Part shown: piece by piece, positions 32,263 to 60,042 of the stretch
How positions within the stretch are numbered: position 1 is the first letter of the stretch
Layout: each line of letters begins with the position of its first letter
From: Podarcis pityusensis
Taxonomy: Eukaryota
Assembly (NCBI GenBank): GCA_964106645.2
Contig: OZ067050.1
Strand: one strand, 5' to 3'
DNA: 64,000 nucleotides
Notes under the pieces: model-generated
What the model saw: the letters and a program-made list of their open reading frames with translations, nothing else
Database searches by the model: none
Told to the model about the DNA's origin: nothing
Made by a program: the position numbers and the translations under genes

Positions 32263-33147
32263 CTGGTGCAGGCTTGTGCAGAGTTTTAGGTACAAGTTGG
32301 ATGCAAGGGTGCATAGGATTGCAGCCCATTTTATGCACCTTCGGCTCAGGAATAAGTCCCACTGATCATGATGAGACTAGATTGCTGCTGTGCAGTCCTC
32401 TTTTTTAAATAAATGTTTTCCTTTTCAGATATTACAGAGCATGGTGAAAGCACAATAAATAAAACCTCCCTTTCAGTAGTTTCAAGCACTACTACAGGTT
32501 CCACATAATTATCTGTACTGCATTGTTTACTGTGACAGCACCTGCACTTTGGAACTCCCGGCCTATTGCAACAAAGCACATGCCTTTGCTAGACTCTTTT
32601 TGGGCACCTGCTAAAAGCATTCTTCTTTAGGCAAGCATACCTAGATGCTTAGGAAGTTGAAGTAATTTTAATCTTAATATTTTAGCTTTTGTATGTTTTA
32701 AAGTAGAATTGTGTTTTCTAAAGAATTTTTTACTGCTGTGGTGTTTCTTTTGTTTTGGTAAGCCACTTTGTAGGTATTTAAAAATAAAGTTTATTAAATA
32801 AATAAACAATAAATATAAATAAAATAACACAAGCCAAAATACAATCCATCCTGTAGATTTAAGTATCTGTCCATAGTTGCCTACTTCTTATCAGAGGCCC
32901 AGAATCCACATTCCTTTCTAAGAAAATATGAAATAACGTAAAACCACTTTTGTAGGCAAAATAAAATAAAATAAAAATAAATCAATGGGGGGTGGTGACA
33001 AGAAATTTTCCGCACCGGGTACCACCTGACCTTCCTACGCCTCTGATGCCACCATGCTCATTTGTACATCTGCACAACTATTTCACTGATGCACCATATT
33101 GTAGCTTTTGTTGTCTTCAGGCAAAAGGGCTAAGACTGGATACAGAT

Positions 33148-35321
33148 AATGACCGCTCCCCGCTTAAAACGGGGGGTGCCCTTTGCGTGGATGCGCGCAG
33201 CCCCTAGATCTGGAGCGGCTCCAACAGCATAGGCTTGGTTTGCCTTCCCTCAGGTGGGATACCTGGAGGTCTCCGCCTACCTCAGTCAGTTGTCCAATCC
33301 CACCTGGGGGAAGCGTTGCCAAGGAGACCAGGCCAGGTAGGGGAGGGATTACCTGCCCACACAATAGAGGGAGGATCTTACCTGGGAATCCTCGGGTGGC
33401 GGTATCAGGCCTTGGGCGGAATCCTTTAGTCCATCTTCCTCTTTGCGGCGGCGATACCAGGGTTCCCCGTTAAAGGGGTTTCTGAAGGGAGGCTTTGACC
33501 GTACGCCGAAAGGTCGTCATTGCTCTCCCCTGCGGCGGAGGCGTAACAGGGGCAGCTATCTCTGCTTGAACATATGTTGTCCAGAGCCGGCCCATCCCCC
33601 CCCCCACACTGGATAACCCTGATGCTCCCTAGGTCCCCGGCTGGGGACTGGGGAGGGAGAACGCCCAATGCCTGAGCCAAGGTCTACCCACATTTGAAAT
33701 TTAATAAAGTTGTGGCCAATTTAATCCCATAGCACGTTGTCATGAGTCGTTATTCCACATGACGGGGGGACCGTGCGGGATCTGGGGACTCCGTCTGTCC
33801 ATGCAATGACCGCTCCCCGCTTAAAACGGGGGGCGCCCTTTGCGTGGACGCGCGCAGCCCCTAGATCTGGAGCGGCTCCAACAGCATAGGCTTGGTTTGC
33901 CTTCCCTCAGGTGGGATACCTGGAGGTCTCCGCCTACCTCAGTCAGTTGTCCAATCCCACCTGGGGGAAGCGTTGCCAAGGAGACCAGGCCAGGTAGGGG
34001 AGGGATTACCTGCCCACACAATAGAGGGAGGATCTTACCTGGGAATCCTCGGGTGGCGGTATCAGGCCTTGGGCGGAATCCTTTAGTCCATCTTCCTCTT
34101 TGCGGCGGCGATACCAGGGTTCCCCGTTAAAGGGGTTTCTGAAGGGAGGCTTTGACCGTACGCCGAAAGGTCGTCATTGCTCTCCCCTGCGGCGGAGGCG
34201 TAACAGGGGCAGCTATCTCTGCTTGAACATATGTTGTCCAGAGCCGGCCCATCCCCCCCCCCACACTGGATAACCCTGATGCTCCCTAGGTCCCCGGCTG
34301 GGGACTGGGGAGGGAGAACGCCCAATGCCTGAGCCAAGGTCTACCCACATTTGAAATTTAATAAAGTTGTGGCCAATTTAATCCCATAGCACGTTGTCAT
34401 GAGTCGTTATTCCACATGACGGGGGGACCGTGCGGGATCTGGGGACTCCGTCTGTCCATGCAATGACCGCTCCCCGCTTAAAACGGGGGGCGCCCTTTGC
34501 GTGGACGCGCGCAGCCCCTAGATCTGGAGCGGCTCCAACAGCATAGGCTTGGTTTGCCTTCCCTCAGGTGGGATACCTGGAGGTCTCCGCCTACCTCAGT
34601 CAGTTGTCCAATCCCACCTGGGGGAAGCGTTGCCAAGGAGACCAGGCCAGGTAGGGGAGGGATTACCTGCCCACACAATAGAGGGAGGATCTTACCTGGG
34701 AATCCTCACTTGGCTCCAGAGATTCTCCCACCCTACCCACCCTCAGTTAATGTCTTATTTGCAGGTTAACTTTTCTTCACAGGTTTTGCAGGTTAACTTT
34801 TCTTCGCAGGTATGCGGGCGCTGCTACGTTAAGGTCGCTGTTAAAGGGCCGGAAAGGAATTTCCCTGCATTGGCAGGTTTCGCCTTTCCCGTAGCAAAAC
34901 GTCACAACTTTGGCGGTATCAGGCCTTGGGCGGAATCCTTTAGTCCATCTTCCTCTTTGCGGCGGCAATACCAGGGTTCCCCATTAAAGGGGTTTCTGAA
35001 GGGAGGCTTTGACCGTACACCGAAAGGTCATCATTGCTCTCCCCTGCGGCGGCGGCGTAACGGGGGCGGCTATCTCTGCTTGAACGTATGTTCTCCAGAG
35101 CTGGCCCATCCCCCCCCACACACTGGATAACCCTGATGCTCCCTAGGTCCCCAGCTGGGGACTAGGGAGGGAGAACGCCCAATGCCTGAGGCAAGGTCTA
35201 CCCACATTTGAAATTTAATAAAGTTGTGGCCAATTTAATCCCATAGCACATTGTCATGAGTCGTTATTCCACATGACGGGGGGACCGTGCGGGATCTGGG
35301 GACTCCGTCTGTCCACGTAAT
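33148..35321 (+). mobile_element. Head-to-tail trimer of a young non-autonomous AATAAAGTTGTGGCC-family element (657 + 657 + 857 bp)
   Basis: Units start at 33148, 33805, 34462, each with AATGACCGCTCCCC; third unit has 203 nt (34708-34910) replacing GGG; CpG-rich. Confidence 0.9.
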
Positions 35322-36211
35322 AAACCAACCTTCTTGAAGCAAAATAGGCCTGGGTTTGCCAATGTTTGATTGCACAATTCTATGCAGGCAGCCTACATAG
35401 GATTAAAATGCCTCTCCACTTTCCCATCTCTTATTTGATTTCACAGTTCATACAATACAATAAAGCCAAGGTTTGATGCACAGTGCATATTTTAATGGTA
35501 TCTAGTTTTGAATAATATTCTTTTCTCTCTTCAGCTCTACATTTTTTGTATTTGTTGTCTTCCCTAAAAACAAATAACCCTTCAAATAATCAACTGGGTC
35601 AAATAAATCATCAAAGCTCATGTACCAAATGACTGCAAAAGTCTGACAAATTATATTTCTGTCATTCAGTTCTAACAGGCAACTTACAGATTGTGTGCCT
35701 CCTCCATGAGAGGGTCAAAGGGTGGCAACATGAGAATGGACATTTTCTGTGGTAGCTCCCTGCTCTCCTCTTCTCCCAGGCCTTTGGCTAAGTAAACAAT
35801 CAATGGCCTTTAAAGCTGGGCAGTGGGTATTGTTTTTCTTTGTTATGATGGTATGCATTTTTTGCATTTTTATACAAAAATACTGCCCCATGATCCTCAG
35901 ATGAAGGACAGTATAGTAATTTAATTAATTAATTAATTAATACACATGATGCTAAGCTATGGTTATTATTAATCAAGGTTTATAAACCAACAACAGGCTT
36001 CAGAGTGTGGTTTCTTCATGCTTAATCAATGATGCTTAAGCCACCAGGCCAGGATGAAACCATGGCTTAGCATTAAGTGTGAACCAGGCCTGTGTTTTGA
36101 GCCTGTAGATTTATCTTGTTAATAGGAAGGTAATGTTAATCTATGCAATGATTCAGTCACATCCTACATTGTGCAATCACTTGAACCACCGATACATTTA
36201 TTAGAAGAAAA

Positions 36212-37147
36212 CTACTCTCTCTGGAAGAGCCTTCTGCCTACTAGCTTTGCAAGAGCTTCTTTAACATCAGTGTTTCTCAGAGAGTATATGAGTGGATTGA
36301 GGACTGGGGTTACTACTGAGTAAAGGATAGCAATAACCTTGTCTTCTTCTAAGGAGTAGGCTGAGGCAGGCCGAAGGAAAGTGTAGATAATTGTGGAATA
36401 GTAAAAGCTTACAACTAAGAGATGGGAAGAACATGTAGAGAAGGCTTTCTTCTTCCCCTCTGTTGAGCGGATTTTGACTATGGTTCTTAGGATAAATCCA
36501 TACGATGTTAATGTTAAGGCACAACTACCTATTGCAATTAGCACAGAAGCTGCAAAAACCATCATTTCATTCAGACTTGTGTCTGAGCAAGAGATCTTGA
36601 ACATAGGTGGTAGCTCACAGAAGAAATGGTTGATGATATTGGAGTTACAGAAGGAAAGCTGTGCTACCAGTCCTGTGTGTACTGCAGAATTTACCAAGCC
36701 TATTAGCCACAGTCCAGCCATTGCCCCAATGCAAAACTCAGTCCTCATGATGCTTGAGTACTGGAAAGGATGGCAGATAGCAGCATAGCGGTCAAAAGCC
36801 ATGAATGCAAGGAGCAGGAGCTCAGTTCCTAGAGCCAAGGTGAAGAGAAAGACCTGTGCAATGCAACCAGGAAGTGCAATTGTCTTTCTTGGTGCAAAAA
36901 TAGTTTGCAGCATTTTGGGAACTGTAACAGAAATAGAACACACATTTATTATAGACAAATTGATGAGAAGAAAATACATTGGCGTGTGGAGTTTGCTACA
37001 CGTGCAGATGGCAAGGATGATGAGGACATTGCCTACCAATGCTGCTGTATAGATGAAGGTGAATGCCCAAAATATAAATATCTGATGTTCAGGGGAGCTG
37101 GAAAGACCCTCCAGGATGAACTCTGTAATGGTAGAATGGTTCTTCAT
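36212..37147 (-). CDS. OR13G1-like: Olfactory receptor, class II (OR13G1/13A-like), 311 aa
   Basis: ATG at 37147 (ORF-track start 37156 is GTG); NHS site; LHTPMYFLL, ALGTELLLL, MAFDRY, NHFFCE, KAFSTCSSHL, NPLIYSLRN. Confidence 0.95.
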   Translation of the reverse strand: MKNHSTITEFILEGLSSSPEHQIFIFWAFTFIYTAALVGNVLIILAICTCSKLHTPMYFLLINLSIINVCSISVTVPKMLQTIFAPRKTIALPGCIAQVFLFTLALGTELLLLAFMAFDRYAAICHPFQYSSIMRTEFCIGAMAGLWLIGLVNSAVHTGLVAQLSFCNSNIINHFFCELPPMFKISCSDTSLNEMMVFAASVLIAIGSCALTLTSYGFILRTIVKIRSTEGKKKAFSTCSSHLLVVSFYYSTIIYTFLRPASAYSLEEDKVIAILYSVVTPVLNPLIYSLRNTDVKEALAKLVGRRLFQRE

Positions 37148-38639
37148 TTCCAGCACTGTGACTCTGCAGACCTAGACAAATAAATCACTCTATGTAGAGA
37201 CCATACCAGTTGATAGGAGAGATCCCTAATTCAGAAAAGAAAACTTTCCACACGTTGGATTTATTAATAATAGCATATGAAGAAAATTATGGTTCGCATT
37301 TAAGTCAAGGGCAATAAAAAAAAAAGAGTAACAGGTTACTTGCTAAGTTTTAAAATAATGCTAGGCAGCAAATACTGTTCACAGGCAAGATATCTACACA
37401 GTGGAACTTACAGTGCTATCCTATGCACATCTGCTCAGAAACAAACCCGCTAAATTCAATAGGACTTAATCTAAGTTAAGTATGTACAATAGTGCAGTTT
37501 TACTATATGCAGAATTGTATATTTAAACCAGGATCTGAAGAGCAACTGAAGCTCACACAAGACAGCTTAAATAGGCCCAGTGTCATTTGCAACTCTCTTT
37601 TTTAAAAAAAAAACCTTTAAACAGCTGGTCCTAATGTGATTTCTGGTTACTTGTGAGCAGTTATTGTATATATGTTGTTGTGAAAAAAAATTAAATTGCA
37701 ACTAGGATTTGGAAGAAATTCAATTCAGTTCATATTTAAAGGTTGGCCTATCTAATTTGCAACAAACCTGAAACAACAAACCAAACACAGCCATTCTTCA
37801 AAATCTACACTTTCCAGATTTTGCAGTAAAATTCTGCATCCAAGTGATGTGTACAAAAATCCATACATTGGGATATAGTGTACATACAAATGCATATAGC
37901 TGTGAAATACCAAAAATATCCCTGCTTGAAGGGAAAATGTTTACAAAATACATATATTTGGGGAATTGTGTAGAATAATGTATATTTCAAGAAATTCTCA
38001 CATACATGATAAATTTTAATTAGGAGTTGTTTTGTTGTTTTAAGCAAACTGATGTAGAAATGTGGAGAACTCAATTTAAGACTAGAGGGACAAGAAACTA
38101 CAACTGAGAGGTGCCCCTATCCTTAGTTACAACTTTACCATTTTCTGGTCTGATTTTTGGTTAATGATTACATTGCCTGTTTTGCCAACACACCCAAGAA
38201 GACTTGAGATAAGAAATATGGGGAACAGGTTATATTTATTACATTATAACCATAGAATTTGCTATCAGAATAATCCAACCAAATTAACCAAAACCTATCT
38301 AAAACAAAGAAGGAAAGAACAAACCCTTACCTCAATTCCAGTTTTTTCTGAAGAAATGTTTCACAGTCTTCTCCTGAAATGCATCAGTGTTCATGTTCAC
38401 TATATTTGCTGGCTGGAAAGATTTACTGATATCCTTTGGATGTATTTCTAGGCAAGCCAATATTGTATTACCTTGATGCTCATCTGACAAAAGCATAACC
38501 ATGTATAATTGGGCTCCACATACTTCCTTAAATAGGGTGTGGATGCCATTGGGAAAAACAAAAGACATTTGAGATTTCATGAGAACTATAACTACAGCTG
38601 TGTCCCTATCTGGGCAGGGATAGCCTAACTTCATCTATG

Positions 38640-41650: not shown

Positions 41651-42595
41651 TTGGGTGCCTGCCTGCACTGAACAATATCAGTGAGGAACCAAGGTGGGCA
41701 AAATGTTCTTGTGGAAATGTCTCCACTGGCAGTGGCAGGCAGAAATCGAGTTTTTCAGGGACAGGGTGCTGGCCATAGCTGTCAATGTTTTCCATTTTTT
41801 AAGGGAAATAGCCTCATTCCGAATAGGATTCCTTGCAAGAAAAGGGAAAAGTTGACAGCTATGGTACTGGCAGGTGGAGTCCACTGAACTAAAAGCTTTG
41901 CAGATCCTCGAAAGGCCCTGATCCTCAGGCATGTGCATAAGAGGGAAATAGTCCCTAACTTCTATCTTGGTTGCTGTGAGCCTGAAGGAATTGTGATACA
42001 CCTCCGCTTCTCCCCAAGTACACTCTGTTGTATTGTTTTATTTATATGTTAGTTGAAGAATTAAAGAAAACCCAGAAACATCATATATAGCTAATGTATT
42101 ATTGTTCATAAGCACACAAATCTCAATGTATGAAATATATGCATATACTGAAATATGCTTTTTAAAGCTTTTGGTATTTTTTTTCTTTGCCATCGCACCC
42201 TGGAAAAAGACACATTAGCCAGACCATGGTGAAAATTGGTCATATTTATTCAAAATAAAACAGTAAAGAGGATATGCAAAAACAACCAATTGAAATAAAA
42301 TTTCCTAAAACACAAGGGAGAACTCCCTCCCCTCTCTGGGTCTAGAGTGCAATTACCATCATTGGCCTCATCATAAAAGATTGGAATGAATCCTTTTTCC
42401 AGCCTGAACCTGTTAAGTGAATCATGGACTTATGGTCTCAGCTTTTACCCTGGTGTGCATGCCAAGCTTAAAAGGCCCTCCAGGGTCCTGTAGGACAAAA
42501 CAATGTAAGATGCCCACAGAGGGCCCTTATTTCCCCACAAGATCTCATATTTCCAGCCTGGAAAGGCCAATTAAACCAATCCCATTAGCTCCATT

Positions 42596-42877
42596 GAGCC
42601 AGTATGGTGTAGTGGTTAGGAGCGGTGGACTCGTAATCTGGTGCACCGGGTTCGCATCCCCGCTCCTCCACATGCAGCTGCTGGGTGACCTTGGGCTAGT
42701 CACACTTCTCTGAAGTGTCTCAGCCCCACTCACCTCACAGAGTGTTTGTTGTGGGGGAGGAAGGGAAAGGAGAATGTTAGCCGCTTTGAGACTCCTTTGG
42801 GGAGTGATAAAGCGGGATATCAAATCCAAACTCCTCCTCCTCCTCCTCTTCTTCTTCTTCTTCTTCTTCTTCTTCTT
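42596..42877 (+). mobile_element. tRNA-CORE-L2 SINE (Squam3-like) with (CCT)n(CTT)n tail
   Basis: A box TGGTGTAGTGG, B box GGTTCGCATCC, CORE-like TGGGTGACCTTGGGCTAGTCAC, L2-type GCCGCTTTGAG...AAAGCGGGATAT end; empty site in the paralog near 49665. Confidence 0.88.
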
Positions 42878-43956
42878 CCATGCATAACAGTAGGAAAGAG
42901 GTGGGGGAGAGGAGTCCCAAAAGCAATCAGGGCCTTCCTGCAGAACAACTACTCAACACTGAAACAAGCAACTAGCAAAGCTTGTACTACTAAAAGAAGA
43001 GGGGACAATTTGGGGAGGAAACTGATCAAATAGTCTGGCTTCCTTCCTCTCCTGAGGAATCCACCAGGAGCCACCTCTTGCCCGGCCTGTTGCTGCATCT
43101 GACCCCATCACTATTACCTCATCATGAAGCAGGGAAGACAAGTGGCAATGCCACATGCCAGAGCACCCCCACTTTCGCTGAATGTGGTGAGGGAGGCACC
43201 TTTTGCAAGGCTTTGATGTTCATCTTGTCTGCCCCAGCAGGGCACAATTTTTCTCTCCAGTGCTATTTAACATTGATACGAGGCCTCCTAAAGCAGCAGT
43301 TAAGTGGTGTGTTTCAAAATACTATCATACTGTTAGTATGTTGGTGACACTCAACTCTGTTTCTCCATAACGTGTGAATAAGGAAGGGCATGTGGGCTTG
43401 GAAACATTGGTGGGAAGGATGCGGGAAAACATGTTTAGCTTTAATCTTTGACTCACTCAGGCTTCTCAATAATTTTCTGTTTGCGAAAAAGGAAGATTAT
43501 TCTCCAATCTGGTGAGAAATAAGTTTGGATGACAAGAAAGAATGATAAACAAGATATAGCAGATTGTTGTCTGAGAGCATTCAAAGGACCCCTACTTGAG
43601 TAGGAACACGGTAAATATAGCTGCAGGCTTTTAGCTATGACATTGAGGAGAAACCAATTCAAACAATAATATCATTGCCTGTTAAAGCACTTATGAAGGA
43701 CTCCTCTATCTATGAAATCACATCGTTTCCTCTTCAAAAACCATCCTAGTGGTAAAAAGGATGATTTTAGTGTTAGCTTTTATGTATTTTTAATGAAATC
43801 TATTATCTATTAGAGAGAGAATCATGAAAGCCTGAATCATAAGTTCCGCAATCGAGTTCTGAAGAACTGGAGCATATTTGACTACACATAAAGAAATCAA
43901 ACAGTTTACTGTTTCCAGTTTTCAAGTAGTCTTTATAATAAATGTATGTAGATCAA

Positions 43957-44907
43957 TCAACCTTGAGAAATTTGAAGCAGCCTTCCTCTTCCAGTAATTG
44001 TTTTGAATGCATCTTTGAAATCTTTGTTTCTCAGTGAATATACGACTGGATTAACAACTGGGGTTACCACTGTATAAAGGAGAGAAATAAATTTGTCTCG
44101 GTCTAGAGAGTAGACAGAGGTGGGCCTGATATATGTGTAGATGACTGAGGAGAAGTAAAAACTGACTACAATGAGATGTGAGGAGCATGTAGAAAAAGCC
44201 TTTTTCTTCCCTTCAGTGGAACGAATTCTGAGGATACTTCTTATGATAAATGAGTATGATGTTAGAGTCAACCCACAGCTACAAATCCCAAAAATCACAT
44301 CTGCCACAAAAGCCATAGTCTCATTCAGACTAGTGTCAGAGCAAGAGAGCTTTAAAAGTGGAGGAACATCACAGAAGAAATGGTTGATGATGTTAGAGCT
44401 GCAAAAGGAGAGTTTCAGCATGAGTCCAGCGTGAACAGCAGAGTTGACCATTCCAGCAACCCACACTCCACTTGCTATTCCAACACATACTTCCTTCTTC
44501 ATAATGACTGTGTACTGCAAGGGATGGCAGATAGCAGCATAGCGGTCAAAAGCCATAAATGACAGAAGGAAAAGCTCTGTACACAAAGCCCATATGAATA
44601 GATACACCTGTGTGATGCAACCATAAAAGGAGATGCTATTCACATGGGTCCAAAGAATTTGAAGCAATTTAGGAATTGTAACAGAGATGGAAAACATGTT
44701 CACTAAGGACAGATTAACAAGCAGGAAATACATGGGAGAGTGGAGTTTTCGGCAAGAGCATATGGTAAAGATTAGGAGGAAATTACTGCCTAAAGCGATA
44801 GCATAGATGAATGTGAATAACCCAAAGAGAAAAGTCTGGAGTTCTGGGGAGCTGATCAGACCAGCCAGTATAAATTCCATAGTAACCGACTGGTTCTTCA
44901 TGTCCAT
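43957..44907 (-). CDS. OR13G1-like: Olfactory receptor, class II (OR13G1-like), 316 aa (main coding exon)
   Basis: NQS site, LHSPMYFLL, MAFDRY, NHFFCD, KAFSTCSSHL, NPVVYSLRN. Confidence 0.95.
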   Translation of the reverse strand: MDMKNQSVTMEFILAGLISSPELQTFLFGLFTFIYAIALGSNFLLIFTICSCRKLHSPMYFLLVNLSLVNMFSISVTIPKLLQILWTHVNSISFYGCITQVYLFIWALCTELFLLSFMAFDRYAAICHPLQYTVIMKKEVCVGIASGVWVAGMVNSAVHAGLMLKLSFCSSNIINHFFCDVPPLLKLSCSDTSLNETMAFVADVIFGICSCGLTLTSYSFIIRSILRIRSTEGKKKAFSTCSSHLIVVSFYFSSVIYTYIRPTSVYSLDRDKFISLLYTVVTPVVNPVVYSLRNKDFKDAFKTITGRGRLLQISQG

Positions 44908-46088
44908 TTCTCTGATGTTACTTTCCTAAACAAATGAATTTTATTAATTGTATTTCCTGAACAAATGAATTGTATTAATTCAAATTAAGGATCAAGATTG
45001 AGCCATATTGCCTCCCTCCCTGCCTCCTTCCATCCCTTCCTTTTGTGCTAAGTGGAGAAGATTGACTGTTGCTTGAATTCGATCATTTTAAAAATTATGG
45101 AAAGCTGTGGTGGCAGCAGCAGCTCTGGTGAGGAGGGATTTTGGACTTCAGGCAAATTGGCCATTTTGCAGGTTTTTCACCTGCCTCATAGCAATCATCG
45201 AAGCTTCAGGCAGATAAGGCCTTGGGTTGGATTTTTAGTTCAAGGTTACACCCTTGAAGGGTTTTGGAAAGTGCAGTTTCTGTCCAGGGTTCCATATGGG
45301 CCAAGGCACCCTTCTTTAAAGCATATTGTTATGATTGCTCCAATTTGATCTGTGTCAAAGAGTACAAAATGCCTAAAAACATGTTTTCAGATAAACTTAG
45401 CATCATGGCGGATCCTACGCTTGAACTACATGTCTCCAAAATCTGAGTTGCAAATTGAGAGATCAGAAGGTAGCAAAAGGGGCTACCAAACAACTCTAAG
45501 GTAGCAAAAGTGGCTACCATACAACTCTAGATATTCCCCTGTACAGTCACAGATGATGTGTTTGCTGCTCCCTCACAACAAAGTGCCATACTTCATTACA
45601 CCAAGCATCTGATATAAAAGGAGCATGGGAGCACCAATGGCAAATCATTCCTAACTTAGCAGCAACTTTTAAGGGGGAAATGATCTGTTTGTAAATCACT
45701 GGGAAAATTGACAGCGGTGCCAGTGTAAGCGCTGGAGGAATAATCTACATTAAAATTGTTGTGATTTTTTTGGGAATATATGGGTGAATATCACCACCAC
45801 TGGACATTACCACCATATGTGCCCAGCCTGCAACATTGCATCCAACACTCCATAGATAGCTCTCGGTTTATCTTTCCCAACTTGACCTATGAGCAATACT
45901 ACTAGAATATGACTTTGTACACATATTCTTTGACTCATGCCAAAACCATGCAAAGTGGAAGCTTATGCCTTCGGATTTCCATGCTCCCTTTAATAATCAT
46001 TTAAGAATCAATCAGTTTATAATCAGAGTGTACAGTTGTTTGTTGTCAAAATTATTAGCTGTAAGGAGGCAGGAAGATGAAATGAAAT

Positions 46089-46891: not shown

Positions 46892-47548
46892 ATTGCATGG
46901 ACAGGCGGAGTCCCCAGATCCCGCGCGGTCCCCCCGTCATGTGGAATAACGACTCTTGACAACGTGCTATGGATTAAATTGGCCACAACTTTATTAAATT
47001 TCAAATGTGGGTAGACCTTGGCTCAGGCATTGGGTGTTCTCCCTCCCCAGTCCCCAGCCGGGGACCTAGGGAGCATCAGGGTTATCCAGTGTGTGGGGGG
47101 GGGATGGGCTGGCTCTGGAGAACATATGTTCAAGCAGAGATAGCCGCCCCCGTTACGCCGCCGCATGGGAGAGCAATGATGACCTTTCGGCGTACGGTCA
47201 AAGCCTCCCTTCAGAAACCCCTTTAACTGGGAACCCTGGTATCACTGCCGCAAAGAGGAAGATGGACTAAAGGATTCCGCCCAAGGCCTGATACCGCCAC
47301 CCGAGGATTCCCAGGTAAGATCCTCCCTCTATTGTGTGGGCAGGTAATCCCTCCCCTACCTGGCCTGGTCTCCTTGGCAACGCTTCCCCCAGGTGGGATT
47401 GGACAACTGACTGAGGTAGGCGGAGACCTCCAGGTATCCCACCTGAGGGAAGGCAAACCAAGCCTATGCTGTTGGAGCCGCTCCAGATCTAGGGGCTGCG
47501 CGTGTCCACGCAAAGGGCGTCCCCCGTTTTAAGCGGGGAGCGGTCATT
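46892..47548 (-). mobile_element. Solo inverted copy of the 657-bp element
   Basis: Reverse complement of unit 33148-33807 with few substitutions; AAT at both ends. Confidence 0.92.
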
Positions 47549-47984
47549 TCTGCACTACCTTTACTTCCAATAAACTCAAGTTATGATGTTGCACTGGTGC
47601 CTGCCTGCTCTGAACTACATCAGTGAGGAACCAAGATGGGCAAAATGTTCTTGCTGGAAATGTCTCCACTGGCAGTGGTAGGCAGAAAGCCCAGAAAAAG
47701 AATATTTGAGGGACAGGATGCTGGCAGGTAGAGTCCACTGAACTAAAAGCTCTCCAGATCCTCCAAAGGCCCTGATCCTCAGGCATAAGGGGGAAACAGT
47801 CCCTAACTTCTATCTTGGTTGCTGTGAGCCTGAAGGAATTGCGATACACCTCCGCTTCTCCCTGAGTACACTCTGTTGTATTGTTTTATTTATATGTTAG
47901 TTGAAGAATTAAAGAAAACCCAAAAACAACATATGCAGCTGATGTATTATTGTTCATAAGCACACAAAGCATATGCATCTCATC

Positions 47985-49540
47985 TCTTTTTTTGTAAATA
48001 ATTTTTATTGATTTTCAAATTAATAAAATTCCAAATGATAGCAATTCAGATCAAATCTTGCCACATCATAATACAAACAAAGCCAATTATACATTCTGAA
48101 TTAAAAAATAAACAAATAAAGGAGGACTTCCCATGTTCTGGATGTCTGGAGAAAGTCTCTTACAGTTGTTCCTGCATTCACCTCTCTTGTTTTTCCCCAG
48201 TTTCATAAGTCCGATCTTAATCCATTGTTTTGCCTTCGCGGTTCCGGTGTATGACTCTCTATCGTGTCCAGCAAATCAGTATTTCTTTTAACATGCAGAA
48301 GGCAGTTCATTCTATGTTGTTATCCTTCAATTGTTTTTTTTCAGCGTAGTTCTCTTAATAGTCCCATCTTTCATTTCAACATTTTATCTTCCAGGCTCTG
48401 GGCTATGTTACAGCTCTCTCAGCACGTGCCAACTCTCCTTCTTTTGATAAGATTTATGGTGAAGCAGTCTTTCAGTCTTTTAATGAGTTAGTATTCCATA
48501 GTGTTCCAAATTAATGTTTCAAGTTAGCATTCCAAATGAATATCTCCGTAGAAAAGCAATGCTGTGGGGTATGTTTCACTATTTTTGGGGGATTGTTTAA
48601 TTTAGATCCTCCAAGATCCGAGCTTGCTCCCATGGGCCCTAGGGAAGCCTGCCAAATCCAAGATTGACTCTACTTTCACATTACACCATACAGTGGTACC
48701 TCAGGTTACATACGCTTCAGGTTACAGACTCCGCTAACCCAGAAATATTACCTCGGGTTATGTACTTTGCTTCAGGATGAGAACAGAAATCGTGCTACGG
48801 CGGCGTGGCAGCAGCAGGAAGCCCCATTAGCTAAAGTGGTGCTTCAGGTTAAGAACAGTTTCAGGTTAAGTACGGACCTCTGGAACGAATTAAGTACTTA
48901 ACCTGAGGTACCACTGTATATTGAAAAGAAAAGTTCATGCAAGTAAATAGAATTTTTTATGTGAAATATTCTCCAATTATTCCATCAAATGTTCTCAGCC
49001 CCCGCCCCTCAGAGGAGGCCATTTTCTTTTTCTCCTGCGCCAGAGCCACCACCATTTTTTTCAGCCTGAACCTCCTTAATCTCTGATCATATTTTGCCAG
49101 TTCTAATTAGGGCTCTCCACCGAGAACTGCACAGCCCAGCTTCTAATTACTTTTTACAGTTCCTCCTGCACACCATTTGGATAATTAATTCTTTCTTTTT
49201 GTGAGGTTCAGGGAATCATAAGTAGCAAATGTAGAGAAAGAAATAACCACTCACCTCACTTGAAACACCATGATGAAAGTCCTTTTTAATTCAAAACTTT
49301 GGCATCCAGTGACTGATTTATTTAGCAGGTCTTTTTTATCTCCTTCTTTCCAGAACACGCCTGTTTTTTAGTCCAAATTTTAATGATTTTTTTGCAAAAC
49401 AGGGATCCTCCTGCTCATGGTGATGACTCTGGAGAGTGCCAATTCATGCAGTGCTCCTGACCCTGAGTCCCTGCCCAGGCATTCTGTAGTGAGCAGCAGT
49501 TATTGGGCGAACCACAGGTGTCGGTCAGCCCCCCCCCCAA
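47985..49540 (-). mobile_element. Probable degraded non-LTR (L1/Tx1-like) insertion, interrupted by a MITE
   Basis: Begins with poly-T/TTTATT; absent from the paralogous block 42130-42465; family assignment weak. Confidence 0.35.
48691..48916. mobile_element. Tigger/pogo-like MITE
   Basis: TA flanks, perfect TIR CAGTGGTACCTCAGGTTA / TAACCTGAGGTACCACTG. Confidence 0.92.
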
Positions 49541-50627
49541 GCTTAAATGGCCCTCTGGGGTTCTAAAGGACAAAACAATGTAAGATTCCCACAGAGTGCC
49601 CTTATTTCCCCCAAAGATCTTACATTTCCTGCCTGGAAAGGCCTATTAAACCAATCCCATTAACGCCATGCATAACCATAGAAAAGGGGGGGGGAGTCCC
49701 AAAACCTATCAGGGCCTCCCCCCAGAACTACTACTCAATACTCAAACAAGCAACCAGCAAAACTTGTGCATTACTTCTAAAAGAAGAAGGGACAATTTGG
49801 GGAGGAAACTGATCAAATAGCTTGGCTTCCTTCTTCTCCTGATTGGGCAATCAACCAGGAGCCACCTCCTACCTGGCCTGTTGCTGCATCCCACCCCATC
49901 ACTATTACCTTATCATGAACCAGGGAAGACAAGTGGCAATGTCACATGCCAGAACACCCCCACTGTTGCTGAACGTGGTGAGGGGGCACATTCTGCAAGG
50001 CTTTGAAGTTCATATTGTCTGCCCCAGCAGGGCACAATTTTTATCTCCAGTACTATTTAACATTGATACGAGGCCTCCTAAAGAAGCAGTTAAGTGGTGT
50101 GTGTCAAAATATTATGATATTTAGTTTTAATCTTCCACTCGCTCAGGCTTCTCAATAATCTTCTGCCTGCCAAAAAGGAAGATTATTCTCCAATCTGGTG
50201 AGAGATAAATTTGGATGGCAAGAAAGAATGATAAAAAAAAAAGCAGATTGGTGTCTGAGAGCATTCAAAGGACCCCTACTTGAGAAGGAATATGGTAAAT
50301 ATAGCTACAGGCTTTTAGCTATAACATTTAGGAAAAACCAGTTACTACAATAAAATCATTGCCTGTTATAGTACTTATGAAGGACTCCTCTATCTATGAA
50401 ATCACATCGTTTCCTCTTCAAGAACCATTCTAGTGGTGAAAAGGATGATTTTAGTGTTAACTTTTAAGTATTTTTAATGAAATATATTATCTATTAGAGA
50501 GAAAATCATGAAAGCTTGAATCATATGTTCCGCAAACGAGTTCTGAAGAACTGAAGCATATTTGACTGTTCATGAAGTAATCAAACAGTTTACTGTTTAC
50601 TGTTTTTTAATAGTATTTCTATATATT

Positions 50628-50658
<31 letters not shown>

Positions 50659-50700
50659 GTGTGTACATATATATATATAATTTATATGTATGTAGATCAA

Positions 50701-51645
50701 TCAACCTTGAGGAATTTGAAGCAGCCTTCCTCTTGCAGTAATTGTCTTGAAAGCATCTTTGAAATCTTTGTTTCTCAGTGAGTATATGATTGGATTAACA
50801 ACTGGAGTTACCACTGTATAAAGGAGAGAAACAAATTTGTCTTGGTCTAGAGAGGAGTCAGAGGTGGGCCTGATATATGCGTAGATGACTGAGGAGAAGT
50901 AAAAACTGACTACAATGAGATGTGAGGAGCATGTAGAAAAAGCCTTTTTCTTCCCTTCAGTGGAACGAATTCTGAGGATACTTCTTACAATAAATGAGTA
51001 TGATGCTAGGGTCAACCCACAGCTACAAATCCCAAAAATCACATCTGACACAAAAGCCATAGTCTCATTCAGACTAGTGTCAGAGCAGGAGAGCTTTAAA
51101 AGTGGAGGAACATCACAGAAGAAATGGTTGATGATGTTAGAGCTGCAAAAGGAGAGTTTCAGCATGAGTCCAGTGTGAACAGCAGAGTTGACCATTCCAG
51201 CAACCCACACTCCACTTGCTATTCCAACACATACTTCCTTCCTCATAATGACTGTGTACTGCAGAGGATGGCAGATAGCAGCATAGCGGTCAAAAGCCAT
51301 AAATGACAGAAGGAAAAGCTCTGTACCCAAAGCCCATATGAATAGATACACCTGTGTGATGCAACCATAAAAGGAGATGCTGTTTGCACGGGTCCAAAGA
51401 GTCTGAAGCAATTTAGGAATTGTAACAGAGATGGAAAACACATTCACTAAGGACAGGTTAACAAGCAGGAAATACATGGGAGAGTGGAGTTTTCGGCAAG
51501 AGCATATGGTAAAGATTAGGAGGAAATTACTGCCTAAAGCAATAGCATATATGAATGTGAATAACCCAAAGAGAAAAGTCTGGAGTTCTGAGGAGCTGAT
51601 CAGACCAACCAGTATAAATTCCATAGTAACCGACTGGTTCTTCAT
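50701..51645 (-). CDS. OR13G1-like: Olfactory receptor, class II (OR13G1-like), 314 aa (main coding exon)
   Basis: Same motifs as, and nearly identical to, 43957-44907. Confidence 0.95.
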   Translation of the reverse strand: MKNQSVTMEFILVGLISSSELQTFLFGLFTFIYAIALGSNFLLIFTICSCRKLHSPMYFLLVNLSLVNVFSISVTIPKLLQTLWTRANSISFYGCITQVYLFIWALGTELFLLSFMAFDRYAAICHPLQYTVIMRKEVCVGIASGVWVAGMVNSAVHTGLMLKLSFCSSNIINHFFCDVPPLLKLSCSDTSLNETMAFVSDVIFGICSCGLTLASYSFIVRSILRIRSTEGKKKAFSTCSSHLIVVSFYFSSVIYAYIRPTSDSSLDQDKFVSLLYTVVTPVVNPIIYSLRNKDFKDAFKTITARGRLLQIPQG

Positions 51646-52601
51646 TTCAATAACCGTGGCACTGGTGTCCTAAACAGATAAATTATATTAAGTAGAATTA
51701 ATGATCCAAATTTATACATACACCATCCTTCTTTCTCTCTTTTTGTGCTAAAAGGAGAAAATTGGCCCTTATTTGACTTCACTAGTCATTTTTAAGATTG
51801 TGGCAAGCTAGTCTGTCATCATAGAAAATGTGGACTCTGAAGTTATCCCTTGCACTATACTCAGAAAATAGTCTCATTGACATTGAACATTACTAAAACA
51901 ATACTTCCCACTGCAACCCCAAAACAAACACACAAAAGATGGCCACTGCTTAGGAAAATGCAGGAATTTTAAAAAAGAACACTGCTAGCAGTAATTGCTG
52001 ACATTTGTATTACCTAATGAGGATGAGAACCACCAAGTAGTTTCAGTAAATGACACAATGCTTACCCTCGTTTATATCAGTTTTTGTTAATTGTCAACAT
52101 TTGTTGAGACATGCTGATTATTCCCTCCATTTCAAAAGGTCTCTGTGGCCATTTTGTTCATACTTAAGCTGGTTAATTAACTATATCTGAGTGGAAATGT
52201 ATTGCTGCAGTGCTGCAGGATTTGTACAGGTAGATGTATCAGTCCACTCAGGGGGATGTAGTCAGGTGGAGGATCCTGTGATTGCAGATACAGATGCAAA
52301 GCCTGACAAGGGCTAATTCATCATGCACAATTGCTTGTGCCCATCAGCTCTGTAGGGAGCAAGGCCCAATGAACATAGTAAGGCTTTCATCCAAGAAAAC
52401 TTCCATCAGATTGTGTTGTTTAGGGTGATATCTTGGATCTTTGTTCATAAAGGATATACTCATTTCACCATGATATCTGGTTAAACCAGTTTTGTGAGAT
52501 GTTGCATTTTTAAAAATTATACTAAAAAGGAAGTTTTACTAGTGAAATAAATAACACAAAAATACATTCAATAAGAGAGATACTTTATACTTCATACTTC
52601 A

Positions 52602-56522: not shown

Positions 56523-56743
56523 AATAAAAAAAATCCTTCCAGTAGCACCTTTAAGACCAACTAAGTTAGTTCTTGGTATGAGCTTTCGTGTGCAAGCACA
56601 CTTCTTCAGATACACATCTGAAGAAGTGTGCTTGCACACGAAAGCTCATACCAAGAACTAACTTAGTTGGTCTTAAAGGTGCTACTGGAAGGATTTTTTT
56701 TATTTTGACTATGGCAGACCAACACGGCTACCTATCTGTAACT
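56523..56743. mobile_element. Penelope-like inverted pseudo-LTR insertion (perfect palindrome)
   Basis: 89-bp arms 56523-56611 / 56616-56704, loop ACAC; TSD CTTTCCTATTACA (56511-56523 / 56742-56754); same family as 1511-1813. Confidence 0.88.
56576..56613 (-). ncRNA. Minimal type I hammerhead ribozyme
   Basis: Identical to the motif at 1602-1639; a second copy on the plus strand (56616-56651) has stem I truncated by the inversion junction. Confidence 0.8.
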
Positions 56744-58222: not shown

Positions 58223-59167
58223 TCATTCTTGGAGTATTGGAAGCAGCCTGCTTCTTCCACGAAATGTCTTGAGTGCTTCTTTAAAATCTTTGTTTCTTAG
58301 TGAATATATAAGGGGATTAACAACAGGGGGTACCACTGTATAAAGGAGAGAAACAAATTTGTCTTTCTCGGGGGAGTAGTCAGAGGATGGCCGGATATAT
58401 GTGTATATGATTGAGAAGAAGTAAAAACTGACTACAATGAGATGTGAGGAACATGTAGAGAAAGCCTTCTTTTTCCCTTCAGTGGAACGAATCCTAAAGA
58501 TAGCTCTCATGATAAACAAATAGGATATTAAGGTTAACCCACAACTTCCAATCCCAAATATCACATCTGCCACCAAAGCCATAGTCTCGTTCAGGCTGGT
58601 GTCAGAGCTTGCGAGCTCTAAAAGTGGAGGAAGATCACAGAAGAAGTGGTTGATGATGTTGGAGTTGCAGAAGGACAGTTGCAGCACAAGTACAGTGTGA
58701 ATGGCAGAATTGCCCATTCCAGCAACCCATACTCCACTTGCTATGCCAAAACACACTTCCTTCCTCATAATGACTGTGTACTGCAAAGGATTGCAGATAG
58801 CAACGTAGCGGTCAAAAGCCATAAATGAGAGAAGAAAAATCTCTGTTCCTAAAGCCCATATGAATAGATACACCTGTGTGATGCAGCCATAAAAGGAAAT
58901 GGTCTTTGTGTGAGTCCAAAGAGTCTGGAGCAATTTAGGAGTTGTAACTGAGATGGAAAACACATTCACTAAGGACAGGTTGATGAGTAGGAAGTACATG
59001 GGTGTGTGGAGTTTTCTGCAACTGCATATGGTGAAGATGAGCAGGAAGTTTCCAGCCAAAGCAGTAGCATAGATAAATGTAAATACCCAAAAGAGAAGAG
59101 TCTGTAGTTCTAAGGAGCTGCTTAGGCTGACCAGTGTAAACTCCATAGCAGTAGACTGGTTTTTCAT
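58223..59167 (-). CDS. OR13G1-like: Olfactory receptor, class II (OR13G1-like), 314 aa (main coding exon)
   Basis: NQS site, LHTPMYFLL, MAFDRY, NHFFCD, KAFSTCSSHL, NPLIYSLRN; LELASSD replaces the usual LxLSCxD. Confidence 0.93.
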   Translation of the reverse strand: MKNQSTAMEFTLVSLSSSLELQTLLFWVFTFIYATALAGNFLLIFTICSCRKLHTPMYFLLINLSLVNVFSISVTTPKLLQTLWTHTKTISFYGCITQVYLFIWALGTEIFLLSFMAFDRYVAICNPLQYTVIMRKEVCFGIASGVWVAGMGNSAIHTVLVLQLSFCNSNIINHFFCDLPPLLELASSDTSLNETMALVADVIFGIGSCGLTLISYLFIMRAIFRIRSTEGKKKAFSTCSSHLIVVSFYFFSIIYTYIRPSSDYSPEKDKFVSLLYTVVPPVVNPLIYSLRNKDFKEALKTFRGRSRLLPILQE

Positions 59168-60042
59168 GTCAATATCTCTGATGCTGATGACCTAGACAGG
59201 AAAATTGTGTTAACTTGGTTATCCAGATAGAAACTTAGTTTTTCCATTCACTTTCTCCCTCTCTCACTCACACTAGAGATTTGGCAATTTCTTTCTTCAG
59301 CTGGCAAATATTTGTAAAGCAATTGTTCTTTCATTTGAGATCACAAAAAAAAAATCATAACTTCTTTTGAGTCTCATGGCTAACAATATACTTTCATTCA
59401 TTATTAAATTGGCTGTCTTTTCATTAAAGAGCAGCATCTACTATGGCCTAAATAACTTGTTAGTTGATCTTTATAACCTAAATTGTATTAATATTAGCCA
59501 TAGCATCTTATGGACTGCCAAGCCTTGAAATAAATAAATAATAAATAAATAAGGCCTAAATAACCCAATTTCATCTTTATATTCATCCTCGGTAAATATC
59601 AACATTAGTAAGAATAGGCTGCCTAAATCTTTCCACCAGTTTTTGAAAGTTTTCCATAATTCAAATTCTTCTCTAAGAGTTGGTTAATCAGAAAATAGTT
59701 ATATTCAAATCTTCTGTGTCCTTTTAAAAACACGTACATGCAGTCATCATAACTCAGCCAGAAATATCCACTTTTAAAATATTCCCATACATATCCAACT
59801 GGGCTGTTTCAAAGCCCTTAAATATAGATATATGTGAGTCTCTGAAAATGAGATGACATTTTTTGTGCAAGAAGTTAGAGTTCAGAGATTTAAGTGATTG
59901 TGTGAAAATGCTATGTGAAATACTATGTCAAGCCACATATTACAAACCCTTTAAATGGGGTTGGGCAAAACACAAGTCATTTATTATTCTTTAATAATTA
60001 ACCAATTTACATTATGAAGAAACTCTTAAGTAACATGAAAGA

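Follow-up and report, generated by a model that had tools for sequence, protein, structure and literature searches.

An internally deleted Ngaro retrotransposon with one duplicated block as the probable origin of a head-to-tail trimer in Podarcis pityusensis

How did a non-coding sequence come to stand three times head to tail, with what look like circle junctions between its units? The question arises from a 64,000-nucleotide stretch of Podarcis pityusensis DNA (assembly GCA_964106645.2, contig OZ067050.1; hereafter the window), in which an earlier note, made from the sequence alone, had described a trimer with one AAT common to each joint. That description stands. Two short units (33148-33807 and 33805-34464) precede a long one (34462-35321), all on the plus strand, and CATGCAATGACCG is found at positions 33800 and 34457. 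The repeat is far above chance (alignments with E=0; 0 matches for a reversed control pattern). The note's solo copy is present as well (46892-47548, minus strand), and each of its ends is AAT. The note had taken the long unit for the parent and had proposed either a self-standing 657-bp element that circularizes and re-integrates at its own ends, or multimerization by rolling-circle replication. We searched the genome (1.5 Gb, 336 contigs) for relatives of the trimer; individual loci are referred to by L numbers.

The relatives carry genes for a reverse transcriptase (RT), a tyrosine recombinase (YR) and an SGNH hydrolase between the same A and B repeats, which confirms the earlier placement in the order DIRS with a tyrosine recombinase. 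Two of them, L093 and L094, measure 6825 and 7031 bp from A to B, and it is this 6.8-7.0 kb coding element, not the long unit, that proved to be the parent. Frames of L093, L094, L037 and L038 match the Pfam families RVT_1, Phage_integrase and Lipase_GDSL_2 in that order. For L094, RVT_1 was matched at E=2e-11 and Phage_integrase at E=3e-6; its RT has the motif YLDD and its recombinase the R-HxxR-Y set (GALR, HSFR and a terminal Y). The Lipase_GDSL_2 match, in a 202-aa frame after the YR, has E=5e-7 and 30.9 bits, under the curated threshold of 32.9. No methyltransferase family was matched by any of the four frames of L094 that were scanned, the 577-aa RT frame gave no RNase H match in Pfam, and the 555-aa first frame matched no family; several RT homologues bear the UniRef name ribonuclease H. 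The closest homologue of the RT is a Zootoca protein (85% identical), followed by proteins of other squamates and amphibians. We note that some family copies have received other insertions. A 5.5-kb insertion with long frames, resembling a Gypsy-type LTR retrotransposon, lies inside the RT region of one copy (L088:4331-9812), and insertions in or beside family copies at L038:4754-8042, L042:6598-9887 and L089 are 97-98% identical to each other; from an RVT_1 match, we take these to be a CR1-like LINE.

The arrangement of repeats around these genes was most complete in more distant families. An SGNH search yielded 1507 candidates, of which 150 were scored and 20 sister-family loci chosen. Sixteen of the 20 have the complete order A1-ORFs-B1-A2-spacer-B2; their spacers measure 160-181 bp and their repeat copies are 99.5-100% identical. 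The remaining four showed no such repeats. Loci L154-L173 hold several very young complete sister Ngaro families, 7.1-8.4 kb long with repeats 99.5-100% identical. In the trimer's own family, none of the loci retrieved holds A1, all ORFs, B1, A2 and B2 in a single copy, so its full layout is drawn from the sister families and from deleted copies. Coding copies of the family have either A1 and one B, or B1-A2-B2 with A1 lost or cut. In young copies, B1 and B2 differ at 0/406 positions in L088, 2/406 in L091 and 3/404 in L043, and at L092 A1 and A2 bear the same derived alleles.

Split direct repeats and a hydrolase after the recombinase define vertebrate Ngaro elements in the description given by PMC9210276. 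By its repeat layout and the ORF content of its relatives, the trimer almost certainly derives from a Ngaro retrotransposon (order DIRS). We rejected the DIRS1-like superfamily, since the repeats are direct and no methyltransferase was matched in the L094 frames, and also the PAT-like superfamily, which PMC7192593 characterizes by split direct repeats and a methylase, with no hydrolase; here SGNH is present and a methylase was not detected. Xenopus DIRS-53_XT, a Ngaro-like element with an SGNH hydrolase (PMC9210276), has the split direct repeats A1 ... B1-A2-B2 in common with the trimer, and of its ORF order as described there (gag-like, RT, YR, SGNH) the relatives here match RT, YR and SGNH, preceded by a first frame that may be gag-like, again with no methyltransferase match. 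The trimer differs from it in having no ORFs, one duplicated block and a 184-bp spacer between A2 and B2, and the A and B repeats are 265 and 411 bp here versus 236 and 152 bp in DIRS-53_XT.

Read against this layout, a short and a long unit together amount to a whole split-repeat element that lacks coding sequence. L091 and L092 are built in the same way, and these two loci and the window copy have all four repeats (A1, B1, A2 and B2). Unit 1 is A1-deletion-B1. Its A1 (33148..33393) covers A positions 1-246 of ~265 and shows two CpG transitions, at unit positions 30 and 45, that are private to it; its B1 (the first copy, 33397..33807) is 411 bp long with AATAAA at 33703. Between them lies the deletion joint (33391..33396), made of CTC microhomology and GGG, the three bases of the parent's internal region just 5' of B1; relative to the coding copies, ~6.2 kb of coding sequence is missing here. 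Because the short unit retains these three coding-parent bases, it is not a deletion derivative of the long unit. Unit 3 is A2-spacer-B2, with a 265-bp A2 (34462..34726) that starts at the second B|A junction, a unique 184-bp spacer (34727..34910), and B2 (34911..35321) as the element's right end. The spacer includes a 27-bp tandem repeat (34758-34811) with pyrimidine-rich, CAG-ending motifs resembling splice acceptors; several solo units elsewhere are ~27 bp shorter. The circle-like joint of the trimer, seen in the B1|A junction at 33797..33849 (AA(T) core, 33805-33807), corresponds to the B1|A2 junction that any Ngaro element with split direct repeats possesses. It is identical to the predicted circle junction, as had been claimed; being a built-in part of the element, it is not a trace of re-inserting circles. 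Retrozymes are tandem retroelements with a self-cleaving ribozyme in each unit. This identity was rejected, as Rfam over 33000-35500 gave only 4 matches (E 1.4-3.1), all far under gathering scores, and no ribozyme.

The ends of the element indicate how it was probably inserted. The junction had been written CATGC-AAT-GACCG, which is present in the trimer; the family form is CACGC-AA-TGACC, with CATGC a CpG-decayed variant. Right ends of 39 solos read ACGCAA in 34, ATGCAA in 4 and ACACAA in 1, and A occupies position -2 in 30/39. The proposed AAT boundary holds at the left end of all 39; at the right end, AA is followed by T in 24, by A in 14 and by C in 1. Sister families begin AAG, AAA or AGA and end CAA (13 loci listed). 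Since the left AAT is constant while the base after the right AA varies, and given the sister starts, the core shared with the target is likely AA, with the left T belonging to the element, rather than the trinucleotide suggested earlier. The outer ends of the trimer do show AAT, within a shared stretch that is in fact four bases, TAAT at 35318-35321 matching TAAT at 33147-33150. Contigs of three of four runs (X2, X15 and X18, from three different related organisms) carry the empty site, in which 33146 is joined to 35318 with one TAAT, and contigs of the fourth run (X1) span both filled ends. An ordinary target-site duplication is absent, in agreement with the note. The extra T at the trimer's right end, found in 0/49 solos, may be a point mutation or a target base. 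An AA core without duplication fits the published DIRS1 recombinase model, in which a short core is common to circle junction and target and no ordinary duplication is made (PMC3266345, PMC7192593). As described in these two sources, DIRS1-like elements share with the family YR integration at a short core; they differ in having inverted terminal repeats, an internal complementary region and a methyltransferase, and the core here is AA, not a fixed trinucleotide. According to PMC7192593, inverse PCR gave no junction product even for DIRS-1.

Family copies are numerous, and the long 860-bp form predominates. Pattern searches gave 384 left ends (<=1 mismatch), 711 spacer-to-B and 29 internal-to-B boundaries (<=2 mismatches), and 9 B|A junctions (<=2 mismatches), which are spread over 8 loci, the window contributing two; ratios among these counts are rough, because the patterns differ in length and mismatch tolerance. 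The long unit, A2-spacer-B2, is the common solo form, as the 711 boundary matches indicate. The first 30 of the 384 left-end loci comprise 21 A-spacer-B solos (two incomplete), 3 A-deletion-B copies and 6 A-only fragments, and none has B upstream of the left end. The exact 657-bp form occurs three times genome-wide, always within this window. If units docked into each other's ends, most pairs would be expected to be long-long, and 0/7 resolved junction loci are. Their left partner is clearly internal-type in five, undeterminable in two and spacer-bearing in none, although spacer-bearing units exceed internal-type ones by 711 to 29, and the chance of 5/5 internal-type left partners is ~1e-7. 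On these grounds we rejected self-targeted integration, and the proposal of a self-standing 657-bp element re-integrating at its own ends is not supported.

Recombination between repeats after insertion has independent support, from a unit difference between two duplicates and from an excess of young copies at junction loci. L043 and L106 are segmental duplicates with the same flanks (L043:6433-9329 versus L106:5882-7920, 99.5% identical, about 320 kb apart), but at the end of the element one of them has an A-spacer-B unit more than the other; the flanks being shared, we rejected this pair as a second local hop. The young subfamily accounts for 4/7 junction loci versus 1/48 solos (p=0.0005), which suggests that the junction state decays with age. 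Two junction-bearing copies, L042 and L089, have A1 cut to 13 and 9 bp, which fits junctions persisting where homology has been lost. Two counts speak against our account: 5/18 young copies are already single-B, and spacer solos exceed internal-type B ends by 711 to 29, the opposite of the prediction from repeat length and distance alone. Scattered isolated A-B units are also known from the Ngaro elements of Cafeteria burkhardae, whose solo AB repeats PMC8547959 ascribes to recombination between 5' and 3' repeats. What the present survey adds to that account is a count of solos (711 versus 29 internal-type ends, with 9 junctions) and a duplication that is likely the reciprocal product. The long unit also resembles SIRE of Trypanosoma cruzi VIPER, an abundant short element of A2, a unique piece and B2 (PMC6681497); SIRE belongs to the VIPER superfamily of kinetoplastids and has a spacer of ~30 bp versus 184 bp here, and its own mobility is left open in that source.

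The distribution of differences among the units suggests why there are three. In B, units 1 and 2 differ at 0/408 positions and have eight derived alleles in common, whereas units 2 and 3 differ at 17/408 (Fisher p=1.3e-5). In A, unit 2 equals unit 3, the two changes being found only in unit 1. Unit 2, the duplicated block, has no private change and is probably a chimera: it equals unit 3 at both A differences, in the A start, and unit 1 elsewhere, including the deletion joint and B. An A like that of unit 3 combined with a B like that of unit 1 points to a likely late unequal crossover in A, not to a concatemer. As judged from these alleles, units 1 and 2 appear far younger as a pair than the insertion. 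We put at roughly three in four the probability that the trimer is an internally deleted, non-coding Ngaro copy whose first block was duplicated long after insertion by unequal crossover in A. On this reading, it is an ordinary product of decay and duplication.

The proposed history has three steps. First, the deletion would have arisen during reverse transcription, when the strand copying A switched near the A end onto an incomplete cDNA by microhomology. Second, following the published model, the closed cDNA would have entered the genome at an AA core through the recombinase of a relative, so that each end of the insertion bears the core. Third, B1 and B2 would have decayed apart to 4%, and A1 and A2 would have mispaired, with a crossover between A positions 46 and 246 yielding the short-short-long order; the reciprocal product of such a crossover would be the solo A-spacer-B unit that fills the genome.

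Breakpoints near the A end recur across the family. In 14 of 18 internally deleted copies, the 5' breakpoint falls at A 215-265, an interval set after viewing the data, with 0.23 expected if breakpoints were uniform (L004, L005, L037, L077, L091, L092, L095, L096, L098-L101, L107 and the window copy). Without the window copy and two copies found by the short-unit query, the count is 11/15. The 3' landing points of the 14 deletions range from ~3.5 to 6.7 kb of the reference element, and the independent deletions at the A end mostly show short microhomology, some with filler bases. Six of seven A-only fragments (L061, L065, L068, L072, L079 and L116) have a precise left end, stop at A 245-263 and continue into unrelated DNA. 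From these breakpoints we infer strand transfer at the A end during reverse transcription. As single-stranded DNA, the B|A junction is predicted to form a nested stem-loop (z -3.6 to -4.1) whose outer stem has the AA at its end; in the window, this stem would pair 33797-33806 with 33840-33849, and the inner hairpin lies in the start of A. Sixteen sister junctions from about four sequence groups have similar predicted folds (z -1.8 to -6.8, 60 shuffles each), and the older-subfamily junction of L090 folds weakly (z -0.9 and -1.5). The structure comes from single-sequence folds: junction-stem covariation was not obtained with RNAalifold on a MAFFT alignment, which was out of register and gave 6 pairs, nor with an ungapped pair count, in which the register was wrong for 7/12 junctions. 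A literature search returned no title on breakpoint clustering or on a folded Ngaro junction, which is weak evidence, and older Ngaro papers may describe deletions or solos.

The three-unit state rests on one assembly, and the same Ngaro remnant could be a dimer in the real allele, with unit 2 created by a mis-join between identical parts of A1 and A2. The CpG-type differences that the earlier note saw between units 1 and 2 near their start are real (two CpG C>T sites, the unit positions 30 and 45 given above), and it had used them to argue against an assembly artefact. The argument does not hold, because unit 2 equals unit 3 at both sites and a mis-join is compatible with them; a mis-join within identical A would leave the same alleles and a unit 2 with no private change, as found. 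We nevertheless consider a mis-join improbable, as the assembly is chromosome-scale (336 contigs) with no N in the window, natural gain or loss of a block occurs at L043/L106, and a 2.2-kb array is short relative to long reads, if the assembly was built from such reads.

We give similarly little credence to an account in which a recombinase acts on the chromosomal B1|A2 junction, excises an A-deletion-B circle and re-inserts it both into the element's own end and 11.6 kb away. In its favour, the internal junction has the sequence predicted for a circle junction and a stable fold (z -3.6 to -4.1), the deletion joint is confined to three neighbouring copies, and single-B and solo forms are the leftovers that excision would produce. 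However, both unit-1 changes would have to postdate the re-insertion and yet lie in the first 46 nt (p 0.005-0.03), the solo lacks the 827 and 847 alleles common to all trimer B copies, other nearby pairs show no sign of hopping (5 pairs at 0-3 alleles, the background level), and the A1 repeats cut to 9 and 13 bp in two junction copies fit survival via homology loss. It is likewise unlikely that the B1|A2 joint is, in general, a live folded site at which the Ngaro recombinase excises A-B or A-ORFs-B circles and re-inserts them without reverse transcription.

The inverted solo (46892..47548, minus strand) carries the trimer's deletion joint between AAT ends of its own, in unrelated flanks. This joint has exactly three copies in the genome, two in the trimer and one in the solo, and its confinement to the window relates the solo to the trimer by a local event. 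The solo is without 827T and 847T, present in all three trimer B copies, so the unequal-crossover account needs an extra event. Trimer and solo flanks show a short likeness (CAGA left, AAAC right) and no alignment; the prior for a second insertion falling within 12 kb is ~1% per locus. Tentatively, and with somewhat less than even confidence, we regard the solo as an insertion in its own right, with gene conversion between it and its neighbour accounting for the shared deletion joint; otherwise, it would be a local hop or a sibling insertion. We listed 9 nearby pairs of family copies, of which 8 were scorable. Five pairs have 0-3 non-CpG derived alleles in common, no more than the background over all pairs; L069 shares 6 with L113 or L114, a set of alleles resembling subfamily markers; and the sole near-identical nearby pair is a segmental duplication. 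We therefore rejected local hopping in general.

Other duplications were seen in passing. At L113 and L114, a solo unit lies within a segment that was recently duplicated in tandem (99.7%, ~15 kb period). In the window, colinear blocks at 41654-43940 and 47596-50625 (88-94% identity) represent a local duplication or a long repeat starting beside the solo's left end. A ~950-bp repeat has four copies (36247-37185, 43934-44947, 50676-51691 and 58236-59183; 72-95% identity), and a 182-bp near-perfect palindrome (97.8%), MITE-like, lies at 56523-56704, with a related piece at 1509-1641.

Insertion of the trimer in one event, as a rolling-circle concatemer, is very improbable. The head-to-tail order with one shared core per joint would suit it, and a rolling-circle intermediate belongs to the DIRS1 model as published in PMC3266345. 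Even decay would be expected, yet the B differences are split 0/408 to 17/408 between the unit pairs (p=1.3e-5), against the rolling-circle multimer of the earlier note; the trimer is the only locus with two junctions among the 8 junction loci, and units 1 and 2 alone would have to be homogenized later. A non-autonomous Helentron/Helitron2 rolling-circle element on the minus strand can be dismissed: Helentrons have an offset inverted repeat, a terminal hairpin, a TT target and a Rep/helicase partner with the same ends, and the trimer does offer an offset inverted repeat, a hairpin near one end and TT ends on the minus strand, but the coding relatives refute this identity, as their RT, tyrosine recombinase and SGNH genes lie between these very ends and the 11 frames scanned matched no Rep/helicase family.

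The trimer illustrates that split direct repeats may pass for circle junctions. If the B1|A2 joint were a live site after all, the solo would be a local hop caught in place and the trimer a self-insertion, the ~700 solo units would in part be a mobile DNA mini-element, and the deletion clustering at the A end would show where strands are transferred when Ngaro elements replicate. More is to be gained from the family survey than from the trimer itself, because the sources cited here leave the model of how split-repeat elements replicate largely untested. It offers three handles: (i) deletions and A-only fragments that stop at the A end, with 3' landing points spanning kilobases; (ii) a two-letter target core; and (iii) a similar nested stem-loop at the junction in sister families of divergent sequence. 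The very young complete sister elements in this genome, with repeats 100% identical, would be suitable substrates for testing.
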